This document shows positions 2 through 58,805 of a DNA stretch of 64,000 nucleotides, in pieces; positions within the stretch are counted from its first letter, which is position 1; every line of letters starts with the position of its first letter. The stretch lies in assembly GCA_041640655.1 (NCBI GenBank), contig JBEPZV010000001.1, forward strand, positions 154,845 to 218,844, written 5' to 3'. The notes beneath the pieces are model-generated. The model was not told the origin of the DNA. It saw only the letters and a list, made by a program, of their open reading frames with translations, and did not search any database. The DNA is from a bacterium (GTDB lineage: Bacteria > Acidobacteriota > Blastocatellia > HR10). The translations under genes were made by a program, and so were the position numbers.

Positions 2-403
2 GCCGTGGGGATGGCTCAGGCGTGCCTGGACGAGGTCATCGCGTATGCGCGCGAGCGCGTCGTCTTCGGTCAGCCCATCGGGAAGTTCCAACTGGTCCAG
101 TCCAAGATCACCGATATGGTCGTGGGGATCGAGAGCGCGCGCTATCTGACTTACCGGCTGGCCTGGCTCAAGGACCAAGGCGTTCAGGATGTTCGCCGCG
201 AGGCCTCCATCGCCAAGATGGTCGCCACCGATGTCGCCCTCATGGCGGCCACTCACGCCGTGCAGATCTTCGGCGCCTACGGCTGTTCGGCCGAATATCC
301 CGTCAGCCGATACTATCGCGACGCCAAGGTCTTTCAGATCGTCGAGGGCGTCAATGAGCTGCATCGCGTGCTCATCGCCGAGTATACTCTGGGCTATCGC
401 TGA
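2..403 (+). CDS. acyl-CoA dehydrogenase, C-terminal fragment (5' end lies outside window)
   Basis: ORF 5..403; reading frame is open to the window edge; C-terminal ACAD helical-domain motifs (FGQPIGKFQ, IFGAYG, YRDAKVFQIVEG). Confidence 0.8.
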   Translation, partial: AVGMAQACLDEVIAYARERVVFGQPIGKFQLVQSKITDMVVGIESARYLTYRLAWLKDQGVQDVRREASIAKMVATDVALMAATHAVQIFGAYGCSAEYPVSRYYRDAKVFQIVEGVNELHRVLIAEYTLGYR

Positions 404-10260: not shown

Positions 10261-11924
10261 CGAACCGAACGGAGAAGATCCTCACGCTCGCCGAAGCCGT
10301 CCGGCAGATCGAGGACGGGAGCACGATCGCCCTCGGCGGTCTCTCCTACTTCAACGCGCCAATGGCGCTGGTGCGCGAATTGATCCGCCAGCGAAAGCGC
10401 GGGCTGACGGTGATCACCTCCGCCGTGACGGGCCTGCAGGCGGATCTGCTCATCGCCGCCGGAGGCGTGCGCCGGCTCATCAGCCCCTACGTGGGCCTGG
10501 AAGAGCTGGGCATGGCGCCGAATTTCCGGCGCGCGGCCGAGCGCGGGGAGATCGAGATCTGCGAGATCGGAGAGGCCTTCCTCGCCTTCGGTCTGAAGGC
10601 GGGAGCAGCCGGCGCGCCCTTCTTCCCCCTCCCTCGCGCGCTCGCCCGCACGGATCTCGTTCGGGTGAATACCGACTATCGCTTCACCCGAGACCCATTC
10701 ACCGGCGAGGAGGTCCTCTGCGTGCCGGCGCTTGTGCCCGATTGGGCGCTGCTGCACGCGCAGCAGAGCGATCCGTTCGGAAACGCGCGCCATCTCGGAT
10801 CGGCTTACATGGACCTGCTGTTGGCGCGCGCCGCGCGCCGCTGTATCGTGAGCTGCGATGAGGTGATCCCTCAAGAGGCCGTGCGCGCGGAGCCGCAGCG
10901 CACGACGCTGCCGGCAGTTCTCGTGGACCACGTCGTCCCGCTCTTCGGGAGCGCGCATCCGACGGCGAGCGAGCCGCTCTACGATGTGGACCGCGAGCAC
11001 CTGCGGCTCTATCTCGAACTCAGCCGGACGCCCGAAGGCGCGGCGCAATATCTCCAGGAATTCGTGCGCTCCTCCGACGAATCGGCGTATCTCCAGAAGG
11101 TGAGGGGGACTGCGCAGGTCTCCGCATCCCGAGTGGAATCGACCGCGTGCGAACCCGAGGAAGCGCCGCCATCGGTCGGAGAACTCTTGGCCATCATCTT
11201 CTCGCGCCTGGTCGAGGATGGGGACGTCGTGGGCGTCGGCACGGGATGTATGGAGGTCGCGGCCGGACTTCGATTGGCGCAGCTCACACACGCTCCCAAC
11301 CTCTCCTTCATCATGGGCGGAACGGGGGCGCTCAATCCGGACGCGGAGGAGTTGCCCCCCTCGGTGAACTCGGCGCGGGCGATCTCCCGAGCCGAAGCCG
11401 TGCTGCGGCTGGAGGATCTGTTCGATCTGGAGCTGAAGGGCGATCTCGATGTGATGTTCCTGAGCGGCTTGCAGATTGATCGGCACGGGAACGTGAACCT
11501 CGTGGGCATTGGTCCGTGGTCGGCACCGCGACGCCGAGGGCCGGGAAGCGTGGGATTGGAGCTGGCTCCCCGCGCGCGACGCCGCGTGGCCTTCTTCCGT
11601 CGGCACACGCGCCAGATCTTCGTCGAACGGGTTGATTTCATCTCGGCCCCGGGTTATGTTCCCCAGGTGATCGAAGGCGGAGCCTACTGGGTCATCACCG
11701 ATCTGGCCGTGATGGATTTCGATGACGAGGGGCGAATGCGGCTGGCCTCCCTCCATCCCGGCGCGACGGTGGAGCAGGTTCGAGAGCGAACGGGCTTTGA
11801 ACTCCTCATCCCGGCCTCGGTGCCGACGACGCCACCGCCGACGCACGAGGAGCTTCACTTGTTACGCACCCAGGTGGACCGCCGAGGGCTCCTGCGGGCG
11901 GGTCCCCGCATGGGGTGTCCGTGA
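10257..11924 (+). CDS. fused CoA-transferase (subunit A-like N-terminal half plus subunit B-like C-terminal half)
   Basis: N-terminal half is paralogous to 1833..2735 and C-terminal half to 2739..3536 (both end ...TGFELLIP...EEL..LR); 555 aa. Confidence 0.7.
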   Translation: MTNRTEKILTLAEAVRQIEDGSTIALGGLSYFNAPMALVRELIRQRKRGLTVITSAVTGLQADLLIAAGGVRRLISPYVGLEELGMAPNFRRAAERGEIEICEIGEAFLAFGLKAGAAGAPFFPLPRALARTDLVRVNTDYRFTRDPFTGEEVLCVPALVPDWALLHAQQSDPFGNARHLGSAYMDLLLARAARRCIVSCDEVIPQEAVRAEPQRTTLPAVLVDHVVPLFGSAHPTASEPLYDVDREHLRLYLELSRTPEGAAQYLQEFVRSSDESAYLQKVRGTAQVSASRVESTACEPEEAPPSVGELLAIIFSRLVEDGDVVGVGTGCMEVAAGLRLAQLTHAPNLSFIMGGTGALNPDAEELPPSVNSARAISRAEAVLRLEDLFDLELKGDLDVMFLSGLQIDRHGNVNLVGIGPWSAPRRRGPGSVGLELAPRARRRVAFFRRHTRQIFVERVDFISAPGYVPQVIEGGAYWVITDLAVMDFDDEGRMRLASLHPGATVEQVRERTGFELLIPASVPTTPPPTHEELHLLRTQVDRRGLLRAGPRMGCP

Positions 11925-13351: not shown

Positions 13352-14507
13352 GAGCCTCAAGGACAGAGTGGCCATCATCGGGATCGGTTGCACGAAGTTC
13401 GGCGAGCTGCACGAGAAGAGCCTTCAAGACCTGATGGTCGAGGCGAGCTTCGCCGCTTACGCGGACGCGGGGATCGAGCCCGATCGCGTGGAAGCGGCGT
13501 GGCTGGGAACGTTCTCACCGGGTTTCGGGGGAGGGAAGGCGAGCGTCACCCTGGCCGACGCGCTGCGACTCTATGGCAAGCCGATCACCCGCGTGGAGAA
13601 CTACTGCGCCACGGGGACCGATGCCTTCCGAAACGCGTGCCTGGCCGTGGCCGCCGGCGTCTACGAAGTGGCCTTGGTCGTCGGAGCGGAGAAGTTGCGA
13701 GATCGGCCCGTGCGGGGATTGCAACGCGAGGGGACGCATCCGTACTTGGAAGCGGGCTCGACCCCACCGGGACTTTTCGCCCTGGCAGCGAATCGGTATT
13801 TCCATCGCTTCGGCGGGGATCGGCGGACGTTGGCCAAGGTCGCCGTCAAGAATCATCACAACGGAGCCCTCAATCCGAAAGCCCATTTTCAGATGGAGGT
13901 GACCGAGGAGCAGGTCCTCAACGCGCCGCTCATCGCCTATCCGTTCGGTCTGTATGACTGCTGCCCCACGACAGACGGAGCCGCGGCCGTCATCATCTGT
14001 CGGGCCGATCTGGCGCGGCAGTTTCGAGACGATCCGGTCTACGTGAAGGGCATCGGATTGGCCGTGGAGACGGGATGGCCTTTCTTCGATCCCACGTTCG
14101 AGTACATCGGGTTCCCGGCGACGACGGCGGCGGCGGCCGAAGCCTATCGCATGGCGGGAATCCGCCACCCGGCGCGGGAGATCTCCGTGGCCGAAGTGCA
14201 TGATTGTTTCACGTGGACCGAGATCGCCAATTATGAGGACCTGGGCTTCTGTCGGAAGGGCGAGGGGAGGTACTTCATCGAGGAGGGACGGAGCGCGCTC
14301 ACGGGCGATCTGCCCGTGAATCCGAGCGGCGGATTGAAATCGTTCGGCCATCCGATCGGAGCCAGCGGCGTGCGCATGCTCACGGAGATCGTCCTGCAGT
14401 TGCGCGGTCAAGCCGGAGCTCGCCAGGTGAAGAACGCCGAGCTGGGACTCGTGCATAATCTGGGCGGACCCGGCTCGGTCGCCTGCGTCGTCATTCTCGG
14501 ACGGTGA
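13344..14507 (+). CDS. SCP2/nsLTP-type thiolase
   Basis: Thiolase-like (CATGTDAFRNA; active-site Cys region; C-terminal NPSGG.KSFGHPIGASG). Start overlaps upstream stop (ATGGGTGA). Confidence 0.75.
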   Translation: MGESLKDRVAIIGIGCTKFGELHEKSLQDLMVEASFAAYADAGIEPDRVEAAWLGTFSPGFGGGKASVTLADALRLYGKPITRVENYCATGTDAFRNACLAVAAGVYEVALVVGAEKLRDRPVRGLQREGTHPYLEAGSTPPGLFALAANRYFHRFGGDRRTLAKVAVKNHHNGALNPKAHFQMEVTEEQVLNAPLIAYPFGLYDCCPTTDGAAAVIICRADLARQFRDDPVYVKGIGLAVETGWPFFDPTFEYIGFPATTAAAAEAYRMAGIRHPAREISVAEVHDCFTWTEIANYEDLGFCRKGEGRYFIEEGRSALTGDLPVNPSGGLKSFGHPIGASGVRMLTEIVLQLRGQAGARQVKNAELGLVHNLGGPGSVACVVILGR

Positions 14508-14552
14508 ACATCGTTCGGGCAACCCCGCGGGGGATCCCTGAAGGAGTCGAGG

Positions 14553-15404
14553 ATGCGTATCGTCGTCTGCCTGACGCAGATTCTCGATCCGGAGATGCCG
14601 CCGAGTGAATTTCGACTGGATCCGCAACGAAAGGCGGCCGCCGAGGGGATCGGACAGCTCGTCGTCAGCATCTTCGATGAGAACGCGCTCGAGGTGGCGC
14701 TGCAGGTGCGCGAGCGCATAGCCGAGCGCGAGGGAGCACCCCACGCGATCTCTCGATCGCGTGAGGACCCCGGCCCGGTGGAGATCGTCGCGCTCACCGT
14801 CGGTCCTCCTTCGGCCGCCGACGTCCTGCGGAAGGCGCTCAGTCTGCGCGCCGATCGCGCCATTTTGATCTCCAGCGAGGGATGGCCTCCGCTGGAAGGC
14901 GCCATCGTCGCCCGCCTTCTGGCCGCCGCCGTGAGACGGCTCCATCCGGTGGACCTCGTGCTCTGCGGGCGCGAGACGGGAGATTGGCATGGGGGACAGG
15001 TCGGCGCCTTCCTGGCCGAAGCGCTCGGATGGGCGAGCGTGAGCTTCGTCTCCCGCATCGAGGTGGAGGGGGAGACCTTCCTCATGCGACGCCAATCGGA
15101 CGAAGGATGGGAGATCGTGCGCGCGAGACGACCCGCCGTGGCGACGATCACCAACGATGAGACGAACGTCCCGCGCTTGCCGAAGGTCAGAGATACGATG
15201 CTGGCCGCCCGCGCGTCGCTCCCCGTGTGGACGATCCCGGAACTGGTCGAAGATCCGAGAGAGCTGTGGCAGGCGAATGCCCTGCAGGTGCGCGAGTTGT
15301 TCATTCCGAGCAGCTCGAAGGCGTGCGAGGTGATCGAGGGGGAGACGGTTCAGGAGAAAGCCGTTCGGCTTCTCCAGGCGCTGCGCCGACGACGGATTCT
15401 CTGA
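14553..15404 (+). CDS. etfB: electron transfer flavoprotein beta subunit, carrying an in-frame 38-nt palindromic-element insertion
   Basis: EtfB family sequence (MRIVVCLTQILDP...). An extra loop GAPHAISRSREDPGP coincides with the palindromic element at 14734..14771. Confidence 0.85.
   Translation: MRIVVCLTQILDPEMPPSEFRLDPQRKAAAEGIGQLVVSIFDENALEVALQVRERIAEREGAPHAISRSREDPGPVEIVALTVGPPSAADVLRKALSLRADRAILISSEGWPPLEGAIVARLLAAAVRRLHPVDLVLCGRETGDWHGGQVGAFLAEALGWASVSFVSRIEVEGETFLMRRQSDEGWEIVRARRPAVATITNDETNVPRLPKVRDTMLAARASLPVWTIPELVEDPRELWQANALQVRELFIPSSSKACEVIEGETVQEKAVRLLQALRRRRIL
14734..14771 (+). repeat. 38-nt palindromic element copy a (GAGCA-CCCCACGCGATC-TCTC-GATCGCGTGAGG-ACCCC), inside etfB
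   Basis: Matches the consensus GGGCA CCCCACGCGATC TCCG GATCGCGTGGGG ACCCC found in four other copies; 12-bp arms. Confidence 0.8.
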
Positions 15405-15424
15405 GCTGAGAGGAGGACGTCCTC

Positions 15425-16420
15425 ATGCGCACCGTGATGGTTCTCCTGCCGACATCCCGCATCGAGCGGGCCGAGCGCGAGGCCATCGGCGCCGCGCGCG
15501 CGTTGTCGCGGGAATGGTCGGCGAACGTGCAGGTGGCCCTCATCGCCCCAACGGCGGAGGGAATCGAAGGCCTCCGAGGGAGGACGGAGGCCTCTGGAGA
15601 TGTGCGCCTGTGGATCGCCGCCCATCCGCAGCTGGCGGCGTATTCGCCCGAGCTGTATGTGAGCGCCAGCGAACAGCTCATCACACGCGCGCGACCGGAC
15701 GTGATTGTCTTCCCCAGTCGGACGATCCCGCTTGAGATCGCGCCGCGTCTCGCATACCGGATCGGGGCGGCGATGGCGACCGATGTCATCGAGCTGCGCG
15801 CCGAGGATGAGACCGTCCGCATCACGAAGCCCGTCTACGGCGGCAAGGCGCACGCGGTGTTGATGGCGCAACGGTTCCCCCTCGTCCTCTGCGTGCGCCC
15901 GCGCGCGTTCGATCCGTTTGAGGGGGAGCTGCGCGACGATGCGGCGATGCGCGTCCAGGTGACGCTCGATCCCTCGTCCGTCCGCACGCAGCTCGTCCGA
16001 CGGATTCAAGAGGACGCCGCGGCGGGAGTGTCGCTCGAAGAGGCGCGCGTCATCGTCAGCGGCGGGCGCGGCCTCGGCGGACCCGAGGGCTTCCGATTGC
16101 TCGAAGAATTGGCGCGGTGGCTCGGCGGCGCCGTCGGCGCTTCGCGCGCGGCGTGCGACGCCGGGTGGGTGCCGGCCAGCTGGCAAATCGGGCAAACGGG
16201 AAAGAAGGTCGCCCCCGATCTCTATATCGCCGTCGGGATCTCCGGAGCCAGCCAGCACATCGTCGGCATCTCCGGGGCCAAGTGCATCGTCGCCATCAAC
16301 ACGGACCCCAAAGCGCCGATCTTCACAGTGGCGGATCTCGGGATCGTCGGCGATTATCGAGCGGTCGTCCCCGCTCTGATCGCGGAGGTCAAACGGATGC
16401 GTGAGGAAGCAGAGGGATGA
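15425..16420 (+). CDS. etfA: electron transfer flavoprotein alpha subunit
   Basis: EtfA FAD-binding C-terminal motifs ([22 protein letters not shown]). Confidence 0.85.
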
Positions 16421-16458
16421 ACGCTTGAACGCGACGAGACCTTCTGGGAGGACGCGAC

Positions 16459-17256
16459 ATGAGTGAGCCGACGGTGCAGCTTGTCGTGGACGATGGCGTG
16501 GCCACGGTGACGCTCAACCGGCCCGAGGCGTTGAACGCTATTGACGCGACGTTGGCGGCCGAGTTGCGCGAGGTCTTTCGAACGTTGGGAGCGCGAGAGG
16601 ATGTTCGGGCCGTGATCCTGACGGGAGCGGGACGGGCGTTCTCGGCGGGTGCGGATTTGAAGTACCTTCACCGGAGATTGGAGGAGGGCGCTTCGGCCGA
16701 ACAGTTGCTGGACGAGTTGCTCGGGCCGTTGAACGATACAATTCGACTCATTCGGGGCATGCCGAAGATCATCATCGCGGCCATTCACGGGGTCGCCAGC
16801 GGTGGCGGCTGTAACCTCGCGCTGGCGTGCGATTATCGGGTGGCGGCTGTGGGGACGCGGTTCAACCAGGCGTTCGTGCGACTCGGGATCGCTCCGGATT
16901 GCGGAGGGACGTTCATTGTGCCGCGCCTGATCGGCTGGACGAAGGCGTTCGAATGGATGGTGAGTGGAGCGTTGATCGAGGCTGAGGAGGCGGCCGCCTG
17001 GGGACTCGTGCATCGCGTCGTCCCCGAGGATCGCGTGCTCGAAGAGGCGCGCGCCTTCGCGCGCTCCGTGTGCGAAGGGCCGACACGAGCGATCGTGACC
17101 ATCAAACACTTGCTCGCGATGAGCCTCGGAGCCTCCCTGGATGAGCAGCTGGAGCGGGAGCGGCAGCTCGTGGGCTTGCTCGCCGGCACCGAGGATTTCC
17201 GCGAAGGCGTGCGCGCCTTCCTCGAGAAGCGCCCCCCGCGCTTCTCCGGGCGATGA
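16459..17256 (+). CDS. enoyl-CoA hydratase/isomerase (crotonase family)
   Basis: Crotonase motifs (LNRPEALNA, GAGRAFSAGADL, GGGCNLALACD). Confidence 0.85.
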   Translation: MSEPTVQLVVDDGVATVTLNRPEALNAIDATLAAELREVFRTLGAREDVRAVILTGAGRAFSAGADLKYLHRRLEEGASAEQLLDELLGPLNDTIRLIRGMPKIIIAAIHGVASGGGCNLALACDYRVAAVGTRFNQAFVRLGIAPDCGGTFIVPRLIGWTKAFEWMVSGALIEAEEAAAWGLVHRVVPEDRVLEEARAFARSVCEGPTRAIVTIKHLLAMSLGASLDEQLERERQLVGLLAGTEDFREGVRAFLEKRPPRFSGR

Positions 17257-17276
17257 CGCGTCGCCCCGATCCTCCC

Positions 17277-17314
17277 GGGGTCCCCACGCGATCCGGAGAT
17301 CGCGTGGGGTGCCC
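17277..17314 (-). repeat. 38-nt palindromic element copy b (intergenic, reverse orientation)
   Basis: GGGGTCCCCACGCGATCCGGAGATCGCGTGGGGTGCCC is the exact reverse complement of copy d; perfect 12-bp arms with a 4-nt spacer. Confidence 0.85.
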
Positions 17315-17335
17315 GAACTCCCCGAACGGAGGACT

Positions 17336-18292
17336 ATGTCGAGCGCATTCGAATTCGTTCCCCCCGGTCTCGATCTCGCCGATGATGACATCCATCCCAT
17401 CGGTCCGGAACCCTGGTGGCGCGAGGCCTGGTACTTCGAATTCTTCGACCCGGCTTCGCGCGTTCAGTTCCAGGTCTATCAAGGCATCTTCCCGAACGCC
17501 GGTCGAGGGGATCTGACCTGCTACGTGTTCGTGGAGGGACGCCTGCGATACGAGCTGATGAAGATGGACTTCGCGATTCCGTCCGACATCGGGCGGGAGC
17601 GCTTGTGCTTCGGCCCCTTGAAATTAGAGATGCTCGAGCCCTTCGTCCGATGGCGCTTGCGCTACGATAGCCCGAGGATGCAGTGCGATCTCTCCTTCCG
17701 CGCGCTCCATCGCGCCTTCAGTTGGGCGGAGACCCGGCTCTGGATGGAAGACGCTCCGGTCGGGCAGCAGAGCCGCCATTTCGATCAGGTGGGATGGTAC
17801 GAGGGATGGCTGCATCTGGATGACGAGCAGCTCTCCATCTCGGCGATCGGGATGCGCGATCGGATGTGGGGGTGGGGAGGGCGCGCTCTCTGGCGCGGGT
17901 ATCTGGTCCTGTGGGCGCCCTTCTCCGAAGCCTTCGTCGTCAATGTGGCGGCCATGAACTTCGCCGACGGTCGACGCCACCTCTGCGGATATCTCCATCG
18001 CGAGGGCGAACGCACCTATCTCGACTCCGCGCGCCTGACCATCACCTGGAGCGAGCAGCGATGGAAGTCGGTCGAACGTGTGCACGCGCAGCTCACCGAT
18101 CGGCGCGGGCGGTCGCTCGCGCTCTCGGCCCGACCGCTCGGCATCATTGATACATCGCATCATTGGCCGCACCGATTCGATCACCTCCTCTTCTCCATCG
18201 GCGAATATGAGTGCCAGGGGATGACCGGCTACGGATGCCTGACGTGGAGCTTCGTCACGGCGGAGGAGAAGATGCGCGCCATCGAGTTCTGA
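17336..18292 (+). CDS. hypothetical protein, possibly CrtC/AttH-like (lipocalin-like hydratase family)
   Basis: ATG 17336 after GGAGG; Trp-rich N-terminal motif PEPWWREAWYFEFFD resembles the EWWY signature of CrtC/AttH family proteins. Weak by-eye assignment. Confidence 0.35.
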   Translation: MSSAFEFVPPGLDLADDDIHPIGPEPWWREAWYFEFFDPASRVQFQVYQGIFPNAGRGDLTCYVFVEGRLRYELMKMDFAIPSDIGRERLCFGPLKLEMLEPFVRWRLRYDSPRMQCDLSFRALHRAFSWAETRLWMEDAPVGQQSRHFDQVGWYEGWLHLDDEQLSISAIGMRDRMWGWGGRALWRGYLVLWAPFSEAFVVNVAAMNFADGRRHLCGYLHREGERTYLDSARLTITWSEQRWKSVERVHAQLTDRRGRSLALSARPLGIIDTSHHWPHRFDHLLFSIGEYECQGMTGYGCLTWSFVTAEEKMRAIEF

Positions 18293-18316
18293 GAGGCGAA
18301 GCTCGGAGACGTGGCC

Positions 18317-19528
18317 ATGAAGTCGACCGACCTCACCGGGATCCTCCCGCGATCTCTCGATCGCGTGGCGTGCCTGAACGCGCTGCTCCATCGGTTCGGG
18401 GAGAGCGTCCGTCACTTCTTCCGCGCCGAGCAACGCTCGCACCTGTTCTCCCCCCTCTTTCATCTCCCCGGGCGATTGATCGCGGGGAGCTATTGCTACT
18501 ACGAGCACCTGGTGCCCTTGTTGCGACAGGTGGCGCGACAGATGCCGCCGGAAGCCCTCGCGCATCGGGTGAAGCGACTCGGGGCGCGACCCAACGAGAT
18601 CAACGCCAATTCTCTGCTGCTCGGGTATCTGAACGGGCGGGAGCAGCGGCGGCTGCTCGGCCATCGCGTGGCAGATGATCCGGAGGAGATCGCCTTCCTC
18701 CTGGACTTCTGGGCGCGCTTCCTCGCCGCCTATCGCGCCGATGGTCGGCTCTTGCCGGAGGAGAGCGGATTCGTTCTGCCGGTGCTCGAAGCGCGAGCGC
18801 TCGAAGTGCTCCTGCCGGAACTCCATCCGGAACCGGAGCACGCACGACGCCAGCGAGGTCCCCATGTGATCGGGAGATCGCGTGGGGTGCCCGAGCGGAT
18901 GCGTCGCGCCCTGGCCACGCTCGAGCTCTTCGCCTTCGTCTTCAACGGCGAGGCGCGCGTCGGCCTCTTTCACCACGGGCCCTATCCCCGACCCGACGGC
19001 ACGTGCGTGCTCGTCAAGGAGCTGGTGGGGTTGCAGGACGATTTCTATTCCTGGGCGGAGGAGTCCGTGCGACTCCCCGTGGCCCATGTGGCCTGCCTCT
19101 TGCTCGTGAAGGACGTCGAAGTGAGAATCGGTTTATTCGGATCGCTCCGGACGGAGCCCCGGGAGTACGCTCAGAACGTCGTGGCCTGTGGCCTCTTCAC
19201 CGCCACGGGGGAAGACGTTCGTCCTCTCACGCTCGAGGAGCTGGAGGAGATCGCCGCGCACGCGGCTGAGGCGCAGATGCGCCTCTATCGCCACTTCCTC
19301 ACATGGGATGATCGGCGTCGCATCGCCTATGGAGCGGAGCTCTACGGGAACCTGCTGCGCGTCTTCGGCGATCAGGCGGGACTCGGGCCGGATTTCCATC
19401 GGGAGATCCGAGAGCGCTTCCGGGAGAGCACGGACCGACATCTACAAGCCATACTCGCTGGCGAGCCTCCGGCCATCCTGCGGCATATCGCGGAGACGGC
19501 GGGAGAGATCTACAGCCCCCTCGCATGA
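18317..19528 (+). CDS. conserved hypothetical protein (paralog P1), carries an in-frame palindromic-element insertion
   Basis: About 400 aa, tandem paralog of 19541..20770 (shared blocks ATLEL.AF, GLF.HGPY, LYGNLL/LYLFAN). Insertion RGPHVIGRSRGVP maps to element copy c. Confidence 0.5.
   Translation: MKSTDLTGILPRSLDRVACLNALLHRFGESVRHFFRAEQRSHLFSPLFHLPGRLIAGSYCYYEHLVPLLRQVARQMPPEALAHRVKRLGARPNEINANSLLLGYLNGREQRRLLGHRVADDPEEIAFLLDFWARFLAAYRADGRLLPEESGFVLPVLEARALEVLLPELHPEPEHARRQRGPHVIGRSRGVPERMRRALATLELFAFVFNGEARVGLFHHGPYPRPDGTCVLVKELVGLQDDFYSWAEESVRLPVAHVACLLLVKDVEVRIGLFGSLRTEPREYAQNVVACGLFTATGEDVRPLTLEELEEIAAHAAEAQMRLYRHFLTWDDRRRIAYGAELYGNLLRVFGDQAGLGPDFHREIRERFRESTDRHLQAILAGEPPAILRHIAETAGEIYSPLA
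18855..18892 (-). repeat. 38-nt palindromic element copy c (inside P1 coding sequence, slightly degenerate)
   Basis: GAGGTCCCCATGTGATCGGGAGATCGCGTGGGGTGCCC; left arm carries 2 substitutions. Confidence 0.8.
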
Positions 19529-19540
19529 AGACCGGGTCGG

Positions 19541-20770
19541 ATGAGGCGCATGACCCTCGAGGAGATCAATCGCCACATCCGGCTGATCGCGGAACAGCTG
19601 AAGGCGTTCATGCGCTCGGAGCAACGCGCGCTCCTGCGATCGGCGCTTTTTGACGTCCCCCGCCGCTCCTCGCTCGGATGGGAATGCCTCTACCGCACGG
19701 CCTATCCGCTGCTGGCGGACCTCACGTCGGTCGTCACGCCTGAGGAGATCGGACGCCGGATGAAGCGCGTGTGCGCGCGCCCGAATTTCCTCACGCTGAG
19801 CATTCTGATCTGCTGCTACCTCGGGGGACGCCAGCAGCGGATCCTCGATCTCGGCGTGCGACCGGGAGAGCCCTTCCCCGAGGATGATCCCGAGCAGATC
19901 GGCTTCGTCCTCGACTTCTGGTGGCGCGTCTGCCGCACCTATCGCGAGGATGGTGCCCTCTTGCCGGAAGAGCGAGGAGGGACGATGCCGATCCTGCCGG
20001 CCGGAACGATCGCTCGACTCCGCGCGCTGCTGGTCGAGACGGATCCGCTCACGGTGAAACGCCTTCGTCGTCTGGCGGCGACGCTGGAGCTGTACGCGTT
20101 CATCCTGCACGGGGAGCAACGCGATGGCCTCTTCGCGCACGGCCCGTACGCGCTGCAGGAGCGGGCGGGCACCCCACGCGATCTCCGGATCGCGTGGGGA
20201 CCCCGGGAGGTGCTCGTCATTCGCGAGTTCACCGACCTGCAGAACAGTTATCTCCCCTGGGCGCAGACGCGCGCGCGGAACCTCTACCCGAATCTGGCGC
20301 TCGCGCTCCAGCTTCGGGACGTGACGGCTCAGTTCGATCTCTTCGGAGGGGTGCGATTCGATCCCCCGGAATATGCTGATCGCGTTCGCGCCGTCGCGTT
20401 GGTGACCGTGGCCGACAATGGGGAGATCCGAGCCGTCCCTTTCGAGGAGATCGAGGAGATCGAACGCCGCGCGGCCGACGCCCAGATGGAGCTGTATCAA
20501 CGCGCGCTCTGCTGGTCGCCGCGCTTCAAGATCGAATACGGCCTCTACCTGTTCGCGAACCACGTGAAGGCGTTCTTCGATCTGGCGGGGGTGGAGGCGG
20601 GCGAGCGCATTCGTCGGGCGTTCGAAGAGGCCGCCGCTCCGTTCCTGCAGCGGTTGCTCGCCGATGCCGAACCACCATTCATCTGGCGGTTCATGGCGAC
20701 GACAGAAGGCGATTTCTTCTATCCGATCTCCGCGCAGATGCCCGAACGTGAGGGAGGAGAGGGGCGATGA
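19541..20770 (+). CDS. conserved hypothetical protein (paralog P2), carries an in-frame palindromic-element insertion
   Basis: Paralog of P1. Insertion GTPRDLRIAWGPRE (copy d) lies at a site where P1 has no insertion. Confidence 0.5.
   Translation: MRRMTLEEINRHIRLIAEQLKAFMRSEQRALLRSALFDVPRRSSLGWECLYRTAYPLLADLTSVVTPEEIGRRMKRVCARPNFLTLSILICCYLGGRQQRILDLGVRPGEPFPEDDPEQIGFVLDFWWRVCRTYREDGALLPEERGGTMPILPAGTIARLRALLVETDPLTVKRLRRLAATLELYAFILHGEQRDGLFAHGPYALQERAGTPRDLRIAWGPREVLVIREFTDLQNSYLPWAQTRARNLYPNLALALQLRDVTAQFDLFGGVRFDPPEYADRVRAVALVTVADNGEIRAVPFEEIEEIERRAADAQMELYQRALCWSPRFKIEYGLYLFANHVKAFFDLAGVEAGERIRRAFEEAAAPFLQRLLADAEPPFIWRFMATTEGDFFYPISAQMPEREGGEGR
20167..20204 (+). repeat. 38-nt palindromic element copy d (inside P2 coding sequence)
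   Basis: GGGCACCCCACGCGATCTCCGGATCGCGTGGGGACCCC; perfect 12-bp inverted arms. Confidence 0.85.
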
Positions 20771-22923
20771 GAGAGGAGAGCCTCTTGATGGTTCACCAGC
20801 AGGAGCCGCTTGGTCAGAGCGAGCCCGCTCGGGAATACTCCTGCGCTGTGGATACGGGGGGGACGTTCACCGACTGCGTCGTCGGCGATTCGGAGGGGAA
20901 TCTGGTCTTCGCCAAGAGCCCCTCGACGCCGCACGATTTTTCGGCGGGCTTCTTCGCCGCACTCGCCCTGGCGGCGGAGCAGCTTGGGCTCACGCTCACC
21001 GAACTGATGGCGCGCACGCGACGGCTCATGCACGGGACGACGGTGGGCACCAACGCCATGGTGGAGCTCAAAGGGGCGCGCGTGGGGTTGATCACGACGC
21101 GGGGGCATGGGGATGCCATCCTCATCATGCGCTCGGTGGGCCGCTCGGCGGGATTGCCGATCGAGCGGTTGCTGCATGTCTCCCGTCATCAGAAACCCCG
21201 GCCCCTCGTCCCCCGCCACCTCATTCGCGAGGTGAGCGAACGCGTGGACTGGCGCGGCGAGGTCATCGTGCCTCTGAATCGAGAAGAGGCGCGTCGCGCC
21301 ATCGAGGAGTTGCTGGAGCAGAAGGTCGAGGCCATCGCCATCGCCTTCCTCTGGGGATTCGTGAATCCCATCCACGAGCGCGAGGTTCGCCGCATGGTCG
21401 AGGAGATAGCGCCCGACCTCTTCGTCACCTGCGCGCACGAGTTGATCGCGAAGCCGGGCGAGTATGAGCGGACGGCGGCGACCGTGATCAATTGTTTCAT
21501 CGGGCCGAAGACGACGCAGTACATCCGCCGGGTGGAAGAGCGGGCTCGCGCGCTCGGCTGCACGGCTCCCCTCCTCATCATGCAAGCATCAGGTGGCGTC
21601 GCGCCGGCCCGGGAGATCCTGCGCGCGCCGTTGTTCACCATCGGCTCGGGGCCGGCAGGGGGCTTGATGGGATGCCAGTTCCTGGCCGAGACCCTCGGAC
21701 ATCCCCACGTCATCGCCACGGACATGGGGGGGACGAGCTTCGACGTCGGCCTCATCGTGGACGGGATGCCGCTGTCGGCGTCCGAGACCACACTCGAGCA
21801 GTACACCTTCTTCATGCCTCGCTTGGACATCCTCTCCATCGGCGCGGGCGGAGGATCCATCATCTGGATCGATGAGCGGAGCGGAACCCTGAAAGTCGGT
21901 CCGGAATCAGCGGGGGCAGACCCGGGACCCGCCTGCTACGGACGCGGAGGCACACGACCCACGGTGACCGATGCGGACCTCATCCTCGGCTATTACAATC
22001 CGGAGTTCTTCCTGGGGGGGAGGCTGACGCTCAATCCTGAAGCGGCTCACCACGCGATGCGCACGGTCGCCGACCCCCTCGGGTTGGACATCACCGAGGC
22101 GGCCGACGGAGCCACGCGGATCGTTGAGATGCAGATGGCCGATCTCATCCGGCAGATGACCATCCAGCGGGGATACGATCCGCGCGATTTCGTCATCTAC
22201 GCCTACGGCGGAGCCGCCGGCGCCCATGCGGCTGTCTACGCGCGGGAGTTGGGATGCCGCACGGTCGTCATCCCGCGCGGAGTCCTGGCCGCCACCTGGT
22301 CGGCCTTCGGGATCCTCTCGACGGATGTCCAGCACGTCTTCGAGAGATCGGAGCTGCTCATCGCACCCCTGGATGCGACGCGCGTCACGGAGATCTTCCT
22401 CGAGCTGGAAGAGCGAGCCCGCCGACAATTGTGCGAGGAGGGGGTGGCCGAGGATCAGATCCTCCTGCGCCGCTTCGCGGAGATGAAGTTCCGACTGCAG
22501 ATCCATCGCGTCGAGATCCCCGTCCCCGGTGGGATTCTGACCGATCAGGACATGCGCGATCTGGAGCAGGCATTCGTACAAAAGTACGAGACGCTCTATG
22601 GACGCGGATCGGCATTCACGGCGGCGGGCATGGAGATCGGCCTGCTGCGCGTGGTGGCGCTCGGGCGCATCGCTCGCGGGCCGTTGAAGCAGCTCTCCAC
22701 CGAGCACCGCAGCGGATGGACGCCCGTCGGACGGCGCCAGGTCTACTGGCGGGAACTCGGACGACGGATTCAAACGCCCATCTTCTCCGGGGAAGGGATC
22801 CCCCCTGAGACATCTCTGGAGGGTCCGGCGATCGTCGAACTGCCCGTGACGACCATCGTCGTCCGCCCGGGCGACCGCCTCACCACCGATGCATATGGGA
22901 ATTTCATCCTCACCCTCCCCTGA
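20767..22923 (+). CDS. hydantoinase A / acetone-carboxylase beta-like subunit (HyuA family)
   Basis: 718 aa; N-terminal AVDTGGTFTDCVV and ASKHD-superfamily ATPase motifs of hydantoinase A/oxoprolinase. Confidence 0.8.
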   Translation: MREESLLMVHQQEPLGQSEPAREYSCAVDTGGTFTDCVVGDSEGNLVFAKSPSTPHDFSAGFFAALALAAEQLGLTLTELMARTRRLMHGTTVGTNAMVELKGARVGLITTRGHGDAILIMRSVGRSAGLPIERLLHVSRHQKPRPLVPRHLIREVSERVDWRGEVIVPLNREEARRAIEELLEQKVEAIAIAFLWGFVNPIHEREVRRMVEEIAPDLFVTCAHELIAKPGEYERTAATVINCFIGPKTTQYIRRVEERARALGCTAPLLIMQASGGVAPAREILRAPLFTIGSGPAGGLMGCQFLAETLGHPHVIATDMGGTSFDVGLIVDGMPLSASETTLEQYTFFMPRLDILSIGAGGGSIIWIDERSGTLKVGPESAGADPGPACYGRGGTRPTVTDADLILGYYNPEFFLGGRLTLNPEAAHHAMRTVADPLGLDITEAADGATRIVEMQMADLIRQMTIQRGYDPRDFVIYAYGGAAGAHAAVYARELGCRTVVIPRGVLAATWSAFGILSTDVQHVFERSELLIAPLDATRVTEIFLELEERARRQLCEEGVAEDQILLRRFAEMKFRLQIHRVEIPVPGGILTDQDMRDLEQAFVQKYETLYGRGSAFTAAGMEIGLLRVVALGRIARGPLKQLSTEHRSGWTPVGRRQVYWRELGRRIQTPIFSGEGIPPETSLEGPAIVELPVTTIVVRPGDRLTTDAYGNFILTLP

Positions 22924-22955: not shown

Positions 22956-25220
22956 ATGTCATCCATCGCGTGGGACGGCCGGCAATACCCCTACGTCTAT
23001 GGCCGAGAGCTGAAGATCGCTCCCGGCCTGAAACTCCACACGGAGGCGGTCGAGCGTATAGACCCGATCACCTACGAGGTCATCCGCCACGCCCTCTGGA
23101 ATATCAACGTCGAACACGGGCTGACCATCATGAAGATCTCCGGCTCCCCCATCTGCGCCTACGGGCATGACTTCAATCCCTGCCTCCTTGACGAGAAGGG
23201 GGATTTCGTCTTCTTCGGCCCGTTCCTTCAGTATCTCTCCTCGGCGACCAGCTCGGCGGTGAAGTGGACGCTGGAGTATCGCTCGGAGAATCCGGGGATC
23301 GAGGAGGACGACATCTTCTTGACGAACGATCCGTGGATCGGCGCGACCCATCAATCGGATGTGACGTTGATCGCGCCCGTCTTCTGGGAGGGGGAGCTGT
23401 TCTGCTGGGTGGGGAATACGCTGCACCAGTGGGATTTAGGGGGGACATCGCCCGGAGGGTTCAATCCCATGGCCCCCGATGTCTATTGGGAGGCCGGATG
23501 CATCCCCCCGATCAAGATCGTCGAACGCGGACGCTTGCGGCGCGATCTGGAGGAAGAGTACATCCGCCGGTCGCGAATGCCGGAACTGGTGGCCCTGGAT
23601 CTGCGCGCGGAGATCGCCGGCTGCCACGTCGCCCGCGAGCGCATCAAACAGTTGCTCGCGCGATACGGAGCCGCGACCGTCAAGGGCGTCATGCGCAAGC
23701 TTCAGGAGGATTCGGAGCGCGCCTTCGTGCGACGCTTGGCGACCATCCCCGATGGGACGTGGCGCGAGGTCGGATGGGTGGAGTGGGCGCACCCGGGCGA
23801 TCGGCGCGTGTACCGGAATTGCCTGACGCTCACCAAGCGCGGCGATCAGTTGATCTTCTCCAACGAGGGGACTGACCCACAAGCCGGCACGCTCAATTGC
23901 ACGCTCGTCGCCTGGAGGGGGGCCATCATGGCCATGGTCTCGGCGCAACTGCTCTTCGATCAGATGTTCGTCGTCGAAGGCGCCTATCGGCATGTCCAGT
24001 TCCAGGTGCAGCCGGGGACGCTCACGTGCGCGCTCTTTCCGGCCGCGGTGAGCGCTGCCCCCGCGCTCACGCTCCTTCAGACGATCGCCCTCTCGGGACT
24101 CGTGATCTCCAAGATGCTCGCCTGTTCGGACGATCCCGAGTTGCGGATGGAAGTCCAAAGCTGCATGGGCGCACCCATGTATCCGATCGCGGCCGTGAGC
24201 GGCCTCAATCAGCGGGGATCGCCCTACGTCTCCTTCCTGCTCGATCCGGTGGGAGCCGCCCTGGCCGGACTCTCCTGGCGAGATGGCGTGGATACGGGCG
24301 GCTGGCCCTGGGATCTGCAAAGCACCATGCCCAATGTCGAGGAGAACGAGTGGTTCTATCCGATCCTCTACCTCTGGCGTCGCGAGCTGCCCGATTCAGG
24401 CGGAGCGGGAATGTTCCGCGGTGGGAACGCCGCCGAATTGGCCTTCCTCCCTCATGGGACGGAACGCATCACGCTCTTCACCGCGACCGGACATTGCGCC
24501 GTCCCGGGACCGGGGCTGTTCGGCGGCTTCCCCACTTCGACGACGCGGTATGCCCTTGTTCGCAACACTCGCGCGCGATCACTCTTGTCCGCCGGACACG
24601 TGCCAGATCGCCTGGAGGTTCTCGGAGGACATGTGGAATATCTCCCGCCCAAGGCCTTCGACATCGTTCAGAATCCCGACGACGTCTTCATCATGTCCTG
24701 GGCCTCAGCGGGCGGCTACGGGGATCCGTTGCGGCGCGATCCTGAGCGCGTGGCCGAGGACTATCGCGAAGGGCGCTTGACCCGGGAGTGGGCGCAACGA
24801 GCCTATGGGGTCGTGCTCGATGAGACCGGAGCTGTCCTCGCGCCGGAGACGGAGCAGCTGCGCCAGCAGATGCGCCGGCATCGTATAGGAGCCGAGCCGA
24901 AGCCGCAAACGGCTCCTGATGAACCCGAGGCGCGCCTCTTGGCTGAAGGTCTGAAACTCGTCGGGGGATGGATCCGCTGCCGGTATTGCGATCATCCCCT
25001 CTCACCCCCGACGGAGAACTATAAGCGCCACTGCCTCCGAAAAAGCCTCTCCATTCAGGACGCGAACCCGCATATCCGCGATCCGAAGCTCTACATCGAA
25101 GAGACTCTGGAGTGGCGCCACTTCTACTGCCCGGGATGCGGCGCGCTCCTTCAGACGGAATTGGCGCGACCTTCGGATCCTCCCCTCTGGGACCTGCAGC
25201 TTGATCTCGGCGCGAAGTGA
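22956..25220 (+). CDS. hydantoinase B / acetone-carboxylase alpha-like subunit (HyuB family) with C-terminal Cys4 motif
   Basis: 754 aa HyuB-like. C-terminal CRYCDHP...CPGCGA resembles Zn-binding motifs of ATP-dependent ketone carboxylases. Confidence 0.8.
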   Translation: MSSIAWDGRQYPYVYGRELKIAPGLKLHTEAVERIDPITYEVIRHALWNINVEHGLTIMKISGSPICAYGHDFNPCLLDEKGDFVFFGPFLQYLSSATSSAVKWTLEYRSENPGIEEDDIFLTNDPWIGATHQSDVTLIAPVFWEGELFCWVGNTLHQWDLGGTSPGGFNPMAPDVYWEAGCIPPIKIVERGRLRRDLEEEYIRRSRMPELVALDLRAEIAGCHVARERIKQLLARYGAATVKGVMRKLQEDSERAFVRRLATIPDGTWREVGWVEWAHPGDRRVYRNCLTLTKRGDQLIFSNEGTDPQAGTLNCTLVAWRGAIMAMVSAQLLFDQMFVVEGAYRHVQFQVQPGTLTCALFPAAVSAAPALTLLQTIALSGLVISKMLACSDDPELRMEVQSCMGAPMYPIAAVSGLNQRGSPYVSFLLDPVGAALAGLSWRDGVDTGGWPWDLQSTMPNVEENEWFYPILYLWRRELPDSGGAGMFRGGNAAELAFLPHGTERITLFTATGHCAVPGPGLFGGFPTSTTRYALVRNTRARSLLSAGHVPDRLEVLGGHVEYLPPKAFDIVQNPDDVFIMSWASAGGYGDPLRRDPERVAEDYREGRLTREWAQRAYGVVLDETGAVLAPETEQLRQQMRRHRIGAEPKPQTAPDEPEARLLAEGLKLVGGWIRCRYCDHPLSPPTENYKRHCLRKSLSIQDANPHIRDPKLYIEETLEWRHFYCPGCGALLQTELARPSDPPLWDLQLDLGAK

Positions 25221-27120: not shown

Positions 27121-28371
27121 ATGGCCTTCACCATGAAGGATCTCCACGATTTGATTCGGATCTTGGAGAAGCATCCGGAGTGGCGCACGGAACTGCGGCG
27201 GCTCCTTCTGACCGATCAGCTGCTGGAGCTGCCCGTCATCGTTCGCGAGTTGGCCGAAGCACAGCGACGAACGGAGGAACGCGTGGAGGCGTTGGCCGAG
27301 GCGCAGCGGCGGACGGAAGAACAGGTGCGGGCCTTGACGCAGCAGGTGCAGGCCTTGGCCGAGGCGCAACGGCGGACGGAGGAGCGGGTCAGTCGGGTGG
27401 AGGAAGAGCTGGCCAAGTTGGCCGAAGCGCAACGGCGGACGGAAGAACAGGTGCGGGCCTTGACGCAGCAGGTGCAGGCCTTGGCCGAGGCGCAACAGCG
27501 GACGGAGGAGCGGGTCAGTCGGGTGGAGGAAGAGCTGGCCAAGTTGGCCGAAGCGCAACGGCGGACGGAAGAACAGGTGCGGGCCTTGACGCAGCAGGTG
27601 CAGGCCTTGGCCGAGGCGCAACAGCGGACGGAGGAGCGGGTCAGTCGGGTGGAGGAAGAGCTGGCCAAGTTGGCCGAAGCGCAACGGCGGACGGAAGAAC
27701 AGGTCCGGGCCTTGACCGAGGCGCAGCGACGAACGGAAGAACAGGTGCGAGCCTTGACTGAAGCGCAGCGGCGGACGGAGGAGCAGGTGCAAGCCTTGAC
27801 CGAAGCGCAGCGGCGGATCGAACAGCAAGTCGCCGATCTGGTGGCCGCTCAACAGCGCACCGAGCGCACCTTGCAACGCCTCCTCGAATGGCAACAGGGC
27901 GAAGCGGGACGGCGCGAGGGCGAGCGATACGAGCGGCGCATCGTGGTGCGCGCGCCCAACCTGTTCTTCGGTGGCGAGGGCGGTGCACCCGGGGAGCCGG
28001 ATGTGCGTCGTCAACTCAGCCGGTGGCTTCACCCGTTCTATCGAGAGGGTCGAGCCCCGGATCCCCCCGCCGATCCTCTCCTGGCCGACCTCATTTGGTG
28101 GAAAGGAGAGGAAGTGTTCGTCGTGGAGGTGTCGCAGAAAGTGGACCCTCAGGACATCCACCGCGCCCGTCAACGAGCCGATACCTTGCGCGAAGCGGGC
28201 GTGAACGCCACACCGGCTGTGATCGGCGAGGAGTGGGCGACGCCGGAGTCACAGGCGCTGGCCCAACAGGAATCGGTGGAATGGTTGGTCGGCGGAGGCC
28301 TTTCCCAGGGGTTCCTGCGCTTCCGCCGCCTGTCAGCCGAGACGCTGGAAAATCCCCCACGCGAAGGATGA
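27121..28371 (+). CDS. coiled-coil repeat protein (paralog A) with C-terminal putative PD-(D/E)xK-like domain
   Basis: N-terminal conserved block [22 protein letters not shown], then repeats of AEAQRRTEE(R/Q)V..., C-terminal FVVEVSQK block; ribosome-binding site GGGAGG. Confidence 0.6.
   Translation: MAFTMKDLHDLIRILEKHPEWRTELRRLLLTDQLLELPVIVRELAEAQRRTEERVEALAEAQRRTEEQVRALTQQVQALAEAQRRTEERVSRVEEELAKLAEAQRRTEEQVRALTQQVQALAEAQQRTEERVSRVEEELAKLAEAQRRTEEQVRALTQQVQALAEAQQRTEERVSRVEEELAKLAEAQRRTEEQVRALTEAQRRTEEQVRALTEAQRRTEEQVQALTEAQRRIEQQVADLVAAQQRTERTLQRLLEWQQGEAGRREGERYERRIVVRAPNLFFGGEGGAPGEPDVRRQLSRWLHPFYREGRAPDPPADPLLADLIWWKGEEVFVVEVSQKVDPQDIHRARQRADTLREAGVNATPAVIGEEWATPESQALAQQESVEWLVGGGLSQGFLRFRRLSAETLENPPREG
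27292..27810 (+). repeat. intragenic tandem repeat: 126-nt unit x3 followed by about 42-nt units x3
   Basis: Near-identical nucleotide units gccgaggcgcaacggcggacggaggagcgggtcagtcgggtggaggaagagctggccaagttg... Confidence 0.8.
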
Positions 28372-58156: not shown

Positions 58157-58805
58157 GGCGCTTCCTCCGTTCGCCGAGCTCACCCACATTGTGCCACGAG
58201 TAGCGGTGTTTGTGAACTGAGCAGGCGAACCGCTGTCGGTGTGCGCCGGATGCGAATCGGAGACGACGCGAACGGACCGAAGGAGGGACACCCTGTTGTG
58301 AGAACGGCGCAGCCAGAATCCGGGAGCGTCAATGGCGGATACTTCGAGCTTGCCGAACTTCGAGATCCTCCGCGAGCGGCTGGCTCGGGAACTGATCCTC
58401 TGCCTCAGTCTGGACCATTTGACGCTCTGGACTGCCTGAGAGGGGGATCGCGAGCGGTGGAGGGGCCAGCTCGTGGCTGAACTGCGCACCGATGACTTGT
58501 CGTGATGGATGCGGAGCTGGCACGTGTGAAGAAGAGAACCGCAAGCGACATCGGGTGATCAATGGAGGGGGAGCGGAGCCTGGGGAGAGGTGCTCGGTCT
58601 CAGGAAGCCCATTGAGTCCGATAATTCGACGAGGACCGAGCGTCTGGCGAGGGCTCGGTCGTCGTTGTTTTGTTTGTTTGCGGTGTCCGCTTCCACGCCA
58701 TTTCATGTGAAGGAGGCGTGGCTTATCCCGGGCGTGTTTCGGCGCTTGAGGCGTGTGGCCTCGTCGTGTATAGTGTTGGTGATTGGGCGGAGGTCATGTG
58801 GCACT

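Follow-up and report, generated by a model that had tools for sequence, protein, structure and literature searches.

Two adjacent genes in the window, the whole stretch of 64,000 nucleotides analysed here, each carry a short palindromic segment at a position where the other has none. Are these segments old parts of the encoded proteins, or did a mobile element insert them separately into coding DNA? The two genes, P1 and P2, are neighbouring reading frames on the plus strand. According to the ORF list, P1 spans positions 18311/18317–19528 (405 amino acids) and P2 positions 19541–20770 (409 amino acids). The alternative P1 start codon, ATG 18317, has GGAG upstream and may be the actual start. 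P1 has no Pfam match and belongs to an uncharacterised family; its 101 homologs come for the most part from MAGs of Acidobacteria. The Pfam context of the neighbouring genes agrees with the initial annotation, which had placed both genes in a catabolic operon.

A BLASTP alignment of P1 and P2 (38% identity, E = 7e-71) identified them as clear paralogs that align well, as had been described. The alignment contains an 18-column gap in P2 facing RGPHVIGRSRGVPE of P1 and a 12-column gap in P1 facing PRDLRIAWGPRE of P2. Each of these two gaps is the site of one copy of the palindromic repeat, referred to as copy c (P1) and copy d (P2). The P2 peptide of the copy d region reads GTPRDLRIAWGPRE.

Copy c has its 40-nt hairpin core (CGAGGTCCCCATGTGATCGGGAGATCGCGTGGGGTGCCCG) at positions 18854–18893 on the plus strand, which we define as the standard orientation. 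The inserted unit comprises 42 nt or 14 codons, instead of the approximately 39 nt given initially, and its limits are ambiguous within positions 18850–18897 because AGCG is found on both flanks. It codes for residues R182–E195 of P1 (RGPHVIGRSRGVPE); the insert peptide given earlier was corrected to this sequence. The segment is missing in all 16 P1 orthologs that were aligned, including the closest one (P0001, 96% amino acid identity), which shows a clean 14-residue gap at this site. At the nucleotide level, the contig of a close relative (L001, 97.1% identical over 3846 nt) has a gap of exactly 42 nt. The alignment gap and the empty orthologs agree that copy c was inserted into P1 and has no equivalent in P2.

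Copy d, a perfect 40-nt core in the reverse orientation (positions 20166–20205, minus strand), codes for approximately residues A209–R222 of P2 (AGTPRDLRIAWGPR). Here, too, the alignment gap and the empty orthologs bear out an insertion restricted to one paralog: all P2 orthologs at 49–77% identity lack the copy and show a 14-residue gap. In L001 copy d is present, minus 15 nt removed by an in-frame deletion. Bacterium HR08 (92% nucleotide identity) carries a 45-nt segment of equal length and unrelated sequence at the site of copy d. This segment was considered as a decayed or reoriented copy and rejected, its global alignment not scoring above shuffled sequences (P = 0.42), and no repeat of it was found elsewhere. 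A simple history of gain and decay fails to account for it. The ortholog P0108 has a short 'TGSPRD' insert near the same site.

The 15 extra unrelated codons of HR08 and the insert of P0108 indicate that this loop is length-variable in the family. They lend some support to the view that c and d are ancestral parts of P1 and P2, similar to the repeat by chance and since lost from other lineages. For copy c, however, this would have to be reconciled with its absence from 16 of 16 orthologs, one of them at 96% amino acid and 97% nucleotide identity with a clean 42-nt gap; an ancestral origin of c is already refuted. Copy d is not only missing from every P2 ortholog at 49–77% identity but also identical at 45 of 45 positions to the reverse complement of an intergenic copy in the window (copy b, see below), an identity that no coding segment of great age could show. 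We therefore regard ancestry as extremely improbable. Comparison with orthologs had been named as the check on this point, and it failed to refute the insertions (c in none of 16 P1 orthologs, d in no P2 ortholog at ≤77% identity).

The insertions of c and d are independent, since their sites, orientations and reading frames differ, and they are of different age, because the 97% relative has d but not c. Within this lineage, the element family has shown recent activity. Both the independence and the past or present mobility claimed for the element are thus upheld, the former by different sites, opposite orientations, different frames and different ages, the latter by presence/absence at 97% identity and by gains elsewhere in the operon of relatives, namely in HyuA of HR08 and in EtfA of L048. 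Very probably, P1 and P2 received separate insertions of a mobile element that is very small and non-autonomous.

The consensus of this element is 5'-CGGGGTCCCCACGCGATC-NNNN-GATCGCGTGGGGTGCCCG-3'. The 40-nt hairpin consists of 4 bp, a 2x2 internal mismatch (G5.G36 / T6.T35), 12 bp and a tetraloop. Its two 18-nt arms are inverted repeats bearing two fixed mismatches, i.e. terminal inverted repeats of the MITE type are present. The internal G·G/T·T mismatch gives the element its polarity, and 55 of the 58 copies examined have retained this GT/TG pair. Over 43 copies, positions 1–40 are conserved and the flanks are not. The arms are free of stop codons in all six frames, and the peptide encoded in each frame is hydrophilic (mean hydropathy from -0.6 to -1.5) and rich in Gly, Pro, Arg, Ser and Asp. 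Owing to these two properties an insert would be tolerated as an extra loop: a copy in a loop-coding stretch would be translated as an additional surface loop, and the gene would survive.

The structure prediction suggested initially is in line with this. The AlphaFold2 (AF2) models of P1 and P2 have pLDDT values of 89.3 and 89.7, and the inserts contain their sole internal segments with pLDDT <50, both between secondary structure elements. In P1 the segment covers residues 185–191 between helices 176–180 and 193–211. In P2 it covers residues 208–219, and the insert forms the loop of a predicted β-hairpin (strands 197–204 and 223–230). Both inserts are accordingly located in low-confidence predicted loops of otherwise confident folds. 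We infer that they are translated and not removed.

The peptide types GSPRDPEIAWGAR and GPHAIxRSRGVP recur in many proteins, which could be taken as a sign that selection acts on the peptide, a short functional module being repeatedly recruited. Yet the use of three frames on both strands yields six unrelated peptides, identical DNA also occurs in intergenic spacers, and disorder is predicted for the inserts, so that such recruitment is hardly credible.

A search of the window with a 28-nt pattern (≤3 mismatches) found five copies compared to none in 100 shuffled sequences. With a sixth one at 60154–60193 (e), the copies in the window are a, b, x, c, d and e, three to four of which are coding; five of the six are clustered within 5.5 kb. 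Copy b (17276–17315, plus strand) matches the consensus perfectly and lies in a 79-nt spacer that separates an enoyl-CoA hydratase gene (end 17256) from a DUF7064/7065 gene (start 17336). Its DNA hairpin has a ΔG of -20.4 kcal/mol (z = -6.7), compared to -10.6 kcal/mol for copy c, and the orthologous spacer of L048 lacks it. Copy a (14733–14772, minus strand) is slightly decayed and lies in frame within the EtfB gene (14553–15404), where it encodes GAPHAISRSREDPG; comparison with the solved EtfB/CarD structure 6fah_B results in a 16-residue gap. L048 (75% nucleotide identity) has a remnant at this site which is 21 nt shorter. Copy e (60154–60193, minus strand) is decayed and intergenic; the gene before it ends at 60002, and the next one starts at 60311. 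The degenerate copy x (18337–18376, plus strand, nhmmer E = 9e-5) lies over the putative first codons of P1 (GILPRSLDRVAC) and is shared with the 97% relative (L001, positions 496–527). Near this copy the P1 orthologs start mostly at an aligned M(E/D)R; copy x may be translated or may else be part of the 5' leader of P1. The degenerate x at the P1 5' end and the in-frame a in EtfB are additions to the copies listed in the initial annotation.

Five copies in a single co-directional catabolic operon, together with the high stability of the hairpin, might indicate that it is kept for the use of the host as DNA or RNA, for example as a signal for mRNA stability or processing or as a protein-binding site; such roles exist in classical REPs (PMC3733652). 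However, the copies are polymorphic in presence between near-identical strains, and both orientations are found, so that either arm order would appear in the transcript. The stems of the intragenic copies c, a and x are weakened, which together with the deletions looks like decay and not like maintenance. An Rfam search of positions 14000–21500 at E≤1 gave no match to any family. A host function thus seems quite improbable to us. For the mobile element, the same weakened stems would represent later decay by hairpin-weakening point mutations and in-frame deletions, the latter exemplified by the loss of 15 nt of d in L001 and of 21 nt of a in L048.

The element is not restricted to this window. 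An exact-pattern scan found 12 copies in Bacterium HR08 and three in HR10, and a metagenome scan found 36 loci. A crude classification by ORF and GC3 of the approximately 99, partly redundant copies from these hot-spring genomes (HR08, HR10) and metagenomes assigned 54 to long ORFs with coding-type GC3, 15 to ORF edges and 30 to non-coding DNA. Intragenic copies use all three frames and both orientations, and a 7-kb locus of HR08 contains seven copies across three genes. The P1/P2 orthologs P0007, P0008 and P0112 have inserts at other sites whose DNA belongs to the same element family. The copies are mainly singletons dispersed inside genes, with few adjacent pairs (L013 1696–1765, L024 5628–5703 and L031 799–882) and no regular CRISPR-like array of repeats and spacers. 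Inverted copies in L024 (HR08) were considered as a REPtron and rejected: the ORFs between them are ordinary long genes which themselves carry copies. A Thermoflexus MAG also contains the same 40-nt core with the polarity mismatch, as does a 'Pseudomonadota' MAG of 70% GC, where the core is part of a larger repeat. Matches of a loose pattern in Streptomyces and other Actinomycetota were set aside as a different palindrome (GGCCGCCCCACGCGATCAGTGGATCACGTGGGGCGGCC). In the literature on HR08/HR10 and on intragenic REPs in Acidobacteria we did not find a prior description.

The modal footprint of an insertion is 42 nt, equal to 14 codons, as derived from five clean pairs of filled and empty sites. 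Besides copy c and its empty counterpart in L001 (97.1% identity), these are the N-terminus of HyuA in HR08 (empty in the window and in L001), HR10 L014 (empty in HR08 L006), L039 (empty in L060, 97.4% identity with perfect flanks) and L042 (empty in the window near 13330), each of 42 nt. Exceptions are a 40-nt copy in a relative, which causes a frameshift in a fused CoA-transferase gene, and one intergenic case of 44 nt. It had been suggested that frame-compatible insertions are selectively retained. Copies c and d are indeed in frame. The footprint is 42 nt at gene boundaries, too, and frame preservation therefore seems to be for the most part a property of the element itself and not just the outcome of selection. 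An insertion would usually add 42 bp and hence 14 codons.

Direct repeats of 1–4 nt were examined at 35 independent copies. A 2-nt repeat flanks seven of them (2.9 expected, P = 0.017), a weak signal, and none has a repeat of 3 or 4 nt. The cleanest filled/empty pair has the flanks AC...AT and no 2-nt duplication. These repeats give no clear support to a target-site duplication of fixed length. The flanks of 43 copies show a weak palindromic bias, with C at position -3 (30/43) and CGG at +43..45, and this bias is already seen in the empty site of copy c; copies b and d have five further flanking bases in common.

This lack of a consistent duplication, the weakly palindromic, pre-existing flanks, the bases shared by b and d and the clustering of five of six window copies within 5.5 kb would all suit a spread without a dedicated transposase, and none was seen in the 8-kb loci around copies. 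In that case DNA metabolism, and no transposon, would have produced the copies as a side effect. Hairpins and short palindromic targets rich in GC would have exchanged sequence by recombination, gene conversion or template switching, or copies would have arisen where breaks in these targets were repaired. The sharp, reproducible ends and the constant 42-nt size at unrelated loci argue against this, as do the same core in MAGs from other phyla and the polarity mismatch kept in 55 of 58 copies, the expected outcome if a protein recognises the hairpin. We consider a transposase-free spread unlikely.

For a mobile element we infer instead that movement is catalysed in trans. Our preferred guess, a tentative one, is an HUH/Y1 transposase of the IS200/IS605-RAYT type recognising the single-stranded hairpin. 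The main alternative, a DDE enzyme to which the two 18-nt arms would serve as terminal inverted repeats, is possible but rather doubtful. We know of no parent insertion sequence for this element, and an unsystematic look at approximately 430 kb of related loci noticed no autonomous element with these arms.

Genes colonised in frame by palindromic selfish DNA are best known from Rickettsia. The RPEs of these obligate intracellular bacteria are AT-rich palindromes of approximately 100–150 bp (Ogata et al. 2000, via PMC10969869 and PMC3733652). As with RPEs, the palindromes described here occur in frame in many unrelated, seemingly functional genes (c in P1, d in P2, a in EtfB, and many more in genes of HR08), at sites tolerated by the fold, and also between genes; RPEs, too, are regarded as selfish DNA. 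In contrast to the RPE unit of approximately 100–150 bp, which adds about 30–50 residues, the present element has a 40-nt core, a 42-nt footprint and 14 residues, and it is found in free-living hot-spring bacteria. Sequence homology to RPE-1 to RPE-10 is very unlikely because its core is GC-rich. REPs and REPINs are likewise imperfect, GC-rich palindromes of 20–40 nt with an irregular stem and many dispersed copies (PMC3733652, PMC3116915), and in Opitutus, Xanthomonas, Thauera and Rickettsia a minority of REPs lies in ORFs and codes for extra residues (PMC3733652). However, REPs are by definition mainly extragenic, whereas more than half of the present copies are intragenic; the 43 copies end with CGGGGT.../...TGCCCG and carry at neither end the GTAG or CGTC tetranucleotide that marks one end in the REP superfamilies of Di Nocera et al. 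2013, and they are chiefly single units and not inverted doublets as in REPINs. With MITEs, which typically measure 50–500 bp, the element shares its non-autonomous nature, two inverted-repeat arms, presence/absence polymorphism and occasional in-frame fusions (PMC10969869), but it is far shorter, its arms are only 4 nt apart and it shows no consistent target-site duplication. DNA uptake sequences differ in that they arise by point substitution and leave orthologs ungapped, whereas discrete 42-nt gaps are observed here. Like HIP1 (GCGATCGC), the element core contains GCGATC/GATCGC. The cyanobacterial SDRs of Elhai et al. 2008 (Genome Res 18:1484; cited in PMC4390886) are reportedly very small, mobile palindromes, some tens of nucleotides long, for which no transposase is known; they are said to insert precisely, often into other palindromes. 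They belong to another phylum and have another sequence, and the likeness is a tentative one.

The element represents a new family within a known type, that of the Rickettsia RPEs and intragenic REPs, and is unusually small and coding-tolerant. A more far-reaching and, in our view, somewhat doubtful interpretation is that of an undescribed class of hairpin transposons with coding DNA as its main habitat. The 14-codon quantum, the arms stop-free in six frames and the benign, loop-forming peptides would then be adaptations that let the element persist in the genes of a compact genome. Its mover would stand outside the rules of RAYT/REP and classical MITE systems because it leaves neither a GTAG tag nor a regular duplication of the target, and the element would have crossed phylum boundaries, as the Thermoflexus and 'Pseudomonadota' MAGs might suggest.

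For genome annotation, the insertions inflate apparent divergence, cause spurious N-terminal extensions and can split genes in MAGs; the element peptides (GSPRDPEIAWGAR, GPHAIxRSRGVP, GHPTRSxDRVGTP and their reverse-strand equivalents) can serve as markers for masking. In-frame colonisation of genes also takes place in free-living thermophilic bacteria, where it is dense, recent and due to a 40-nt element. With clean presence/absence pairs at 97% identity and an element short enough for synthesis, this case offers a tractable system for the questions of how such hairpins are mobilised and how proteins accommodate random loops of 14 residues.

P1 (18311–19528, + strand, 405 aa, with an alternative ATG at 18317) and P2 (19541–20770, + strand, 409 aa) are adjacent open reading frames. 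They encode paralogs, which align along their full length with 38% identity (E = 7e-71). According to the Pfam matches the two genes sit in a long co-directional catabolic cluster, in the order CoA-transferases, OYE/dienoyl-CoA-reductase-like enzyme, TetR, acyl-CoA dehydrogenase, SDR, thiolase/DUF35, EtfB and EtfA, enoyl-CoA hydratase, DUF7064/7065, P1 and P2, hydantoinase A, and hydantoinase B with a fused acetone-carboxylase gamma domain. In the hydantoinase B-type subunit (22956–25220) this gamma-subunit domain (PF08882) is located at the C-terminus. Database searches yielded 101 homologs of P1 and more than 200 of P2. Neither protein has a Pfam family or a convincing structural neighbour in the PDB, in line with the initial annotation, which described them as uncharacterised members of a catabolic operon.

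The pairwise alignment of P1 and P2 contains two large gaps, the first facing '...RGPHVIGRSRGVPE' in P1 and the second facing '...PRDLRIAWGPRE' in P2. At each gap lies a copy of the same palindromic repeat (copy c in P1, copy d in P2), so that each paralog indeed carries the repeat at a site that is empty in the other. The c and d segments are insertions and not ancestral parts of the family. Segment c is present in none of 16 orthologs in the P1 alignment, and the nearest one (P0001, 96% identity) shows a single clean 14-residue gap at this position. P0001 is encoded on contig L001, which shares 97.1% identity with the window along 3846 nt and is shorter by exactly 42 nt at the position of c. 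The 14 residues at d are missing from all P2 orthologs of 49–77% identity. L001 carries d, with a 15-nt in-frame internal deletion, and has no c; d therefore predates the split between the window and L001, and c is younger. Since c and d differ in site, orientation and frame, they are independent events, as had been proposed. Two further assemblies include contigs of 100% identity to the window that contain both copies, which rules out an assembly artefact.

The core of the element was defined by aligning 43 different copies, taken from the window as well as from two related genomes and hot-spring metagenomes. The core comprises 40 nt, CGGGGTCCCCACGCGATC-NNNN-GATCGCGTGGGGTGCCCG, and conservation drops sharply beyond positions 1–40. 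As single-stranded DNA it forms a hairpin (dG −20.4 kcal/mol, z −6.7) in which a 2x2 internal loop separates 4 bp from the 12 bp that carry the tetraloop. An internal G·G/T·T mismatch, present in 55 of 58 copies, makes the palindrome polar. All six reading frames of the arms are free of stop codons and encode hydrophilic peptides in which G, P, R, S and D are abundant. The loop is variable; among the 43 aligned copies (window and loci L004–L068), A never occurs at position 19 and T never at position 22. Because the loop neither begins with A nor finishes with T, TGATC, with a TGA stop in one frame, never arises there on either strand. Loops that give TAG (TCTA, TATA) are found in intergenic copies or in copies in a compatible reading frame. 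Rfam contained no family matching the element.

A 28-nt pattern (≤3 mismatches) detected five copies in the 64-kb window and none in 100 dinucleotide shuffles; repeat finding and an nhmmer profile added a sixth. The copies are a (14733–14772), b (17276–17315), x (18337–18376, degenerate), c (18854–18893), d (20166–20205) and e (60154–60193). Copy a lies in EtfB; an alignment with the solved CarD structure (6fah_B) shows a 16-residue gap at this insert. A 5.5-kb part of one operon (14733–20205) contains five of the six copies, and the orthologous operon of more distant relatives (L030/L048, L031) received several independent insertions, which together suggest local hopping or a regional preference. 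The window also holds two paralogous genes (27121–28371 and 58590–60002) in which a unit of 63 nt (21 residues) recurs in tandem in long arrays; their products look like coiled-coil proteins. The units of the second array are 83–97% identical to one another; the first gene had no Pfam match.

When one genome per species was scanned for the exact pattern, 12 copies were found in Bacterium HR08 and 3 in Bacterium HR10 (92% and 89% nucleotide identity to the window over shared loci), 3 in a 'Pseudomonadota' MAG and 1 in a Thermoflexus MAG. A metagenome scan added 36 loci. Of about 99 copies (some loci overlapping), 54 are within long ORFs with coding-type GC3, 15 at ORF edges and 30 in non-coding DNA, with all frames and orientations represented. 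A 7-kb locus of HR08 contains seven copies over three genes, one pair being adjacent. P0007, P0008 and P0112 have inserts at other P1/P2 sites, encoded by DNA of the same family. L048 shows an additional copy in EtfA and, in EtfB, a remnant of copy a that is 21 nt shorter. Filled and empty alleles, such as c and L001, together with these inserts at other sites confirm the earlier proposal that the element is or was mobile. In the 'Pseudomonadota bacterium SAR270' MAG (~70% GC) the core (L018:2623–2815, L027:1701–1878, L020:6443–6568) is central in a larger repeat of 115–190 nt, which is itself bordered by outer inverted repeats (GCGCCGATTTTGGCCG ... CGGCCAAAATCGGC). The cores from this MAG and the Thermoflexus MAG (L021:7804–7843) keep the GT/TG polarity mismatch; their occurrence in MAGs assigned to other phyla could be due to horizontal spread, to nesting in another MITE or to mis-binning. 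Matches in Streptomyces/Actinomycetota (L009, L011, L019, L023, L025, L026), caught by the loose pattern only, were rejected as a different palindrome, GGCCGCCCCACGCGATCAGTGGATCACGTGGGGCGGCC, which is conserved as a single copy in each of several Streptomyces genomes.

The insertion footprint is exactly 42 nt in five clean filled/empty comparisons: c against L001, an HR08 copy at the HyuA N-terminus against the window and L001, HR10 L014 against HR08 L006, L039 against L060 (97.4% identity), and L042 against the window near 13330. At the protein level d likewise amounts to 14 codons. Because one of these five sites is at the end of a gene and not inside it, the size of 42 nt looks intrinsic to the element. 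The initial annotation had assumed frame-preserving insertions of about 39 nt; the insertion unit does preserve the frame, and its length is corrected to 42 nt. There are two exceptions. One intergenic comparison, in diverged DNA, gave 44 nt. The copy at L042:776–814 accounts for an extra 40 nt, which causes a frameshift. Its site corresponds to ~11000 of the window, at the boundary between the two domains of a fused CoA-transferase (gene 10257–11924), and the L042 halves are out of frame with each other (ORFs 23–1018 and 624–1847). Judging from these reading frames, a gene that forms one fused unit in the window has apparently been split or inactivated by the element in L042. Another L042 copy (3226–3265), with a C-to-T change (CACGTGATC), provides the TGA stop of the upstream ChsH2-like gene in this relative. 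We infer that element copies would be translated, because their footprints are multiples of three, their arms are stop-free and they decay via in-frame deletions.

AlphaFold models of both proteins are confident (pLDDT 89.3 for P1, 89.7 for P2), and the sole internal segments with pLDDT <50 are the inserts: residues 185–191 of P1 (c), between helices 176–180 and 193–211, and residues 208–219 of P2 (d), in a β-hairpin turn. The d site is a recurrent length-variable loop. Element-derived inserts occur there also in P0008, a P1 ortholog, and in P0108. The HR08 P2 ortholog (L010:226–285, ~20160–20210 of the window) has a segment of the same length (45 nt, 15 codons) and unrelated sequence, CDEEAPTGRRPGGMP, which is non-palindromic and has flanks of 92% nucleotide identity to the window. 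This segment had no repeat elsewhere, and its likeness to the element was no greater than for shuffles.

A 2-nt direct repeat surrounds 7 of 35 independent copies (2.9 expected, P = 0.017), and none of the 35 has a longer one. The best filled/empty pair is flanked by AC...AT. A weak flank bias (C at −3, CGG at +43..45) reflects target preference, since the empty allele of c already has these bases. Because the polarity mismatch is conserved and there is no regular duplication, the favoured candidate for moving the element is an HUH/Y1 transposase that would act on a single strand and recognise the hairpin. Against it count the absence of the GTAG/CGTC tags carried by known REP superfamilies (PMC3733652) and the lack of a transposase in the loci around the copies. 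Alternatively, a DDE enzyme may move the element, or a recombination-based route may spread it.

In the literature on HR08/HR10 and on intragenic REPs in Acidobacteria we found no earlier description of the element. It behaves like Rickettsia palindromic elements and like intragenic REPs, which are a minority of REPs (PMC10969869, PMC3733652), but differs in size (40 nt), composition, its free-living hot-spring hosts and its high intragenic share. Judging from the best named P1 homologs, the host probably belongs to the Acidobacteriota. The analysis shows a mobile, non-autonomous hairpin that has been active recently and inserts as a unit that keeps the reading frame.
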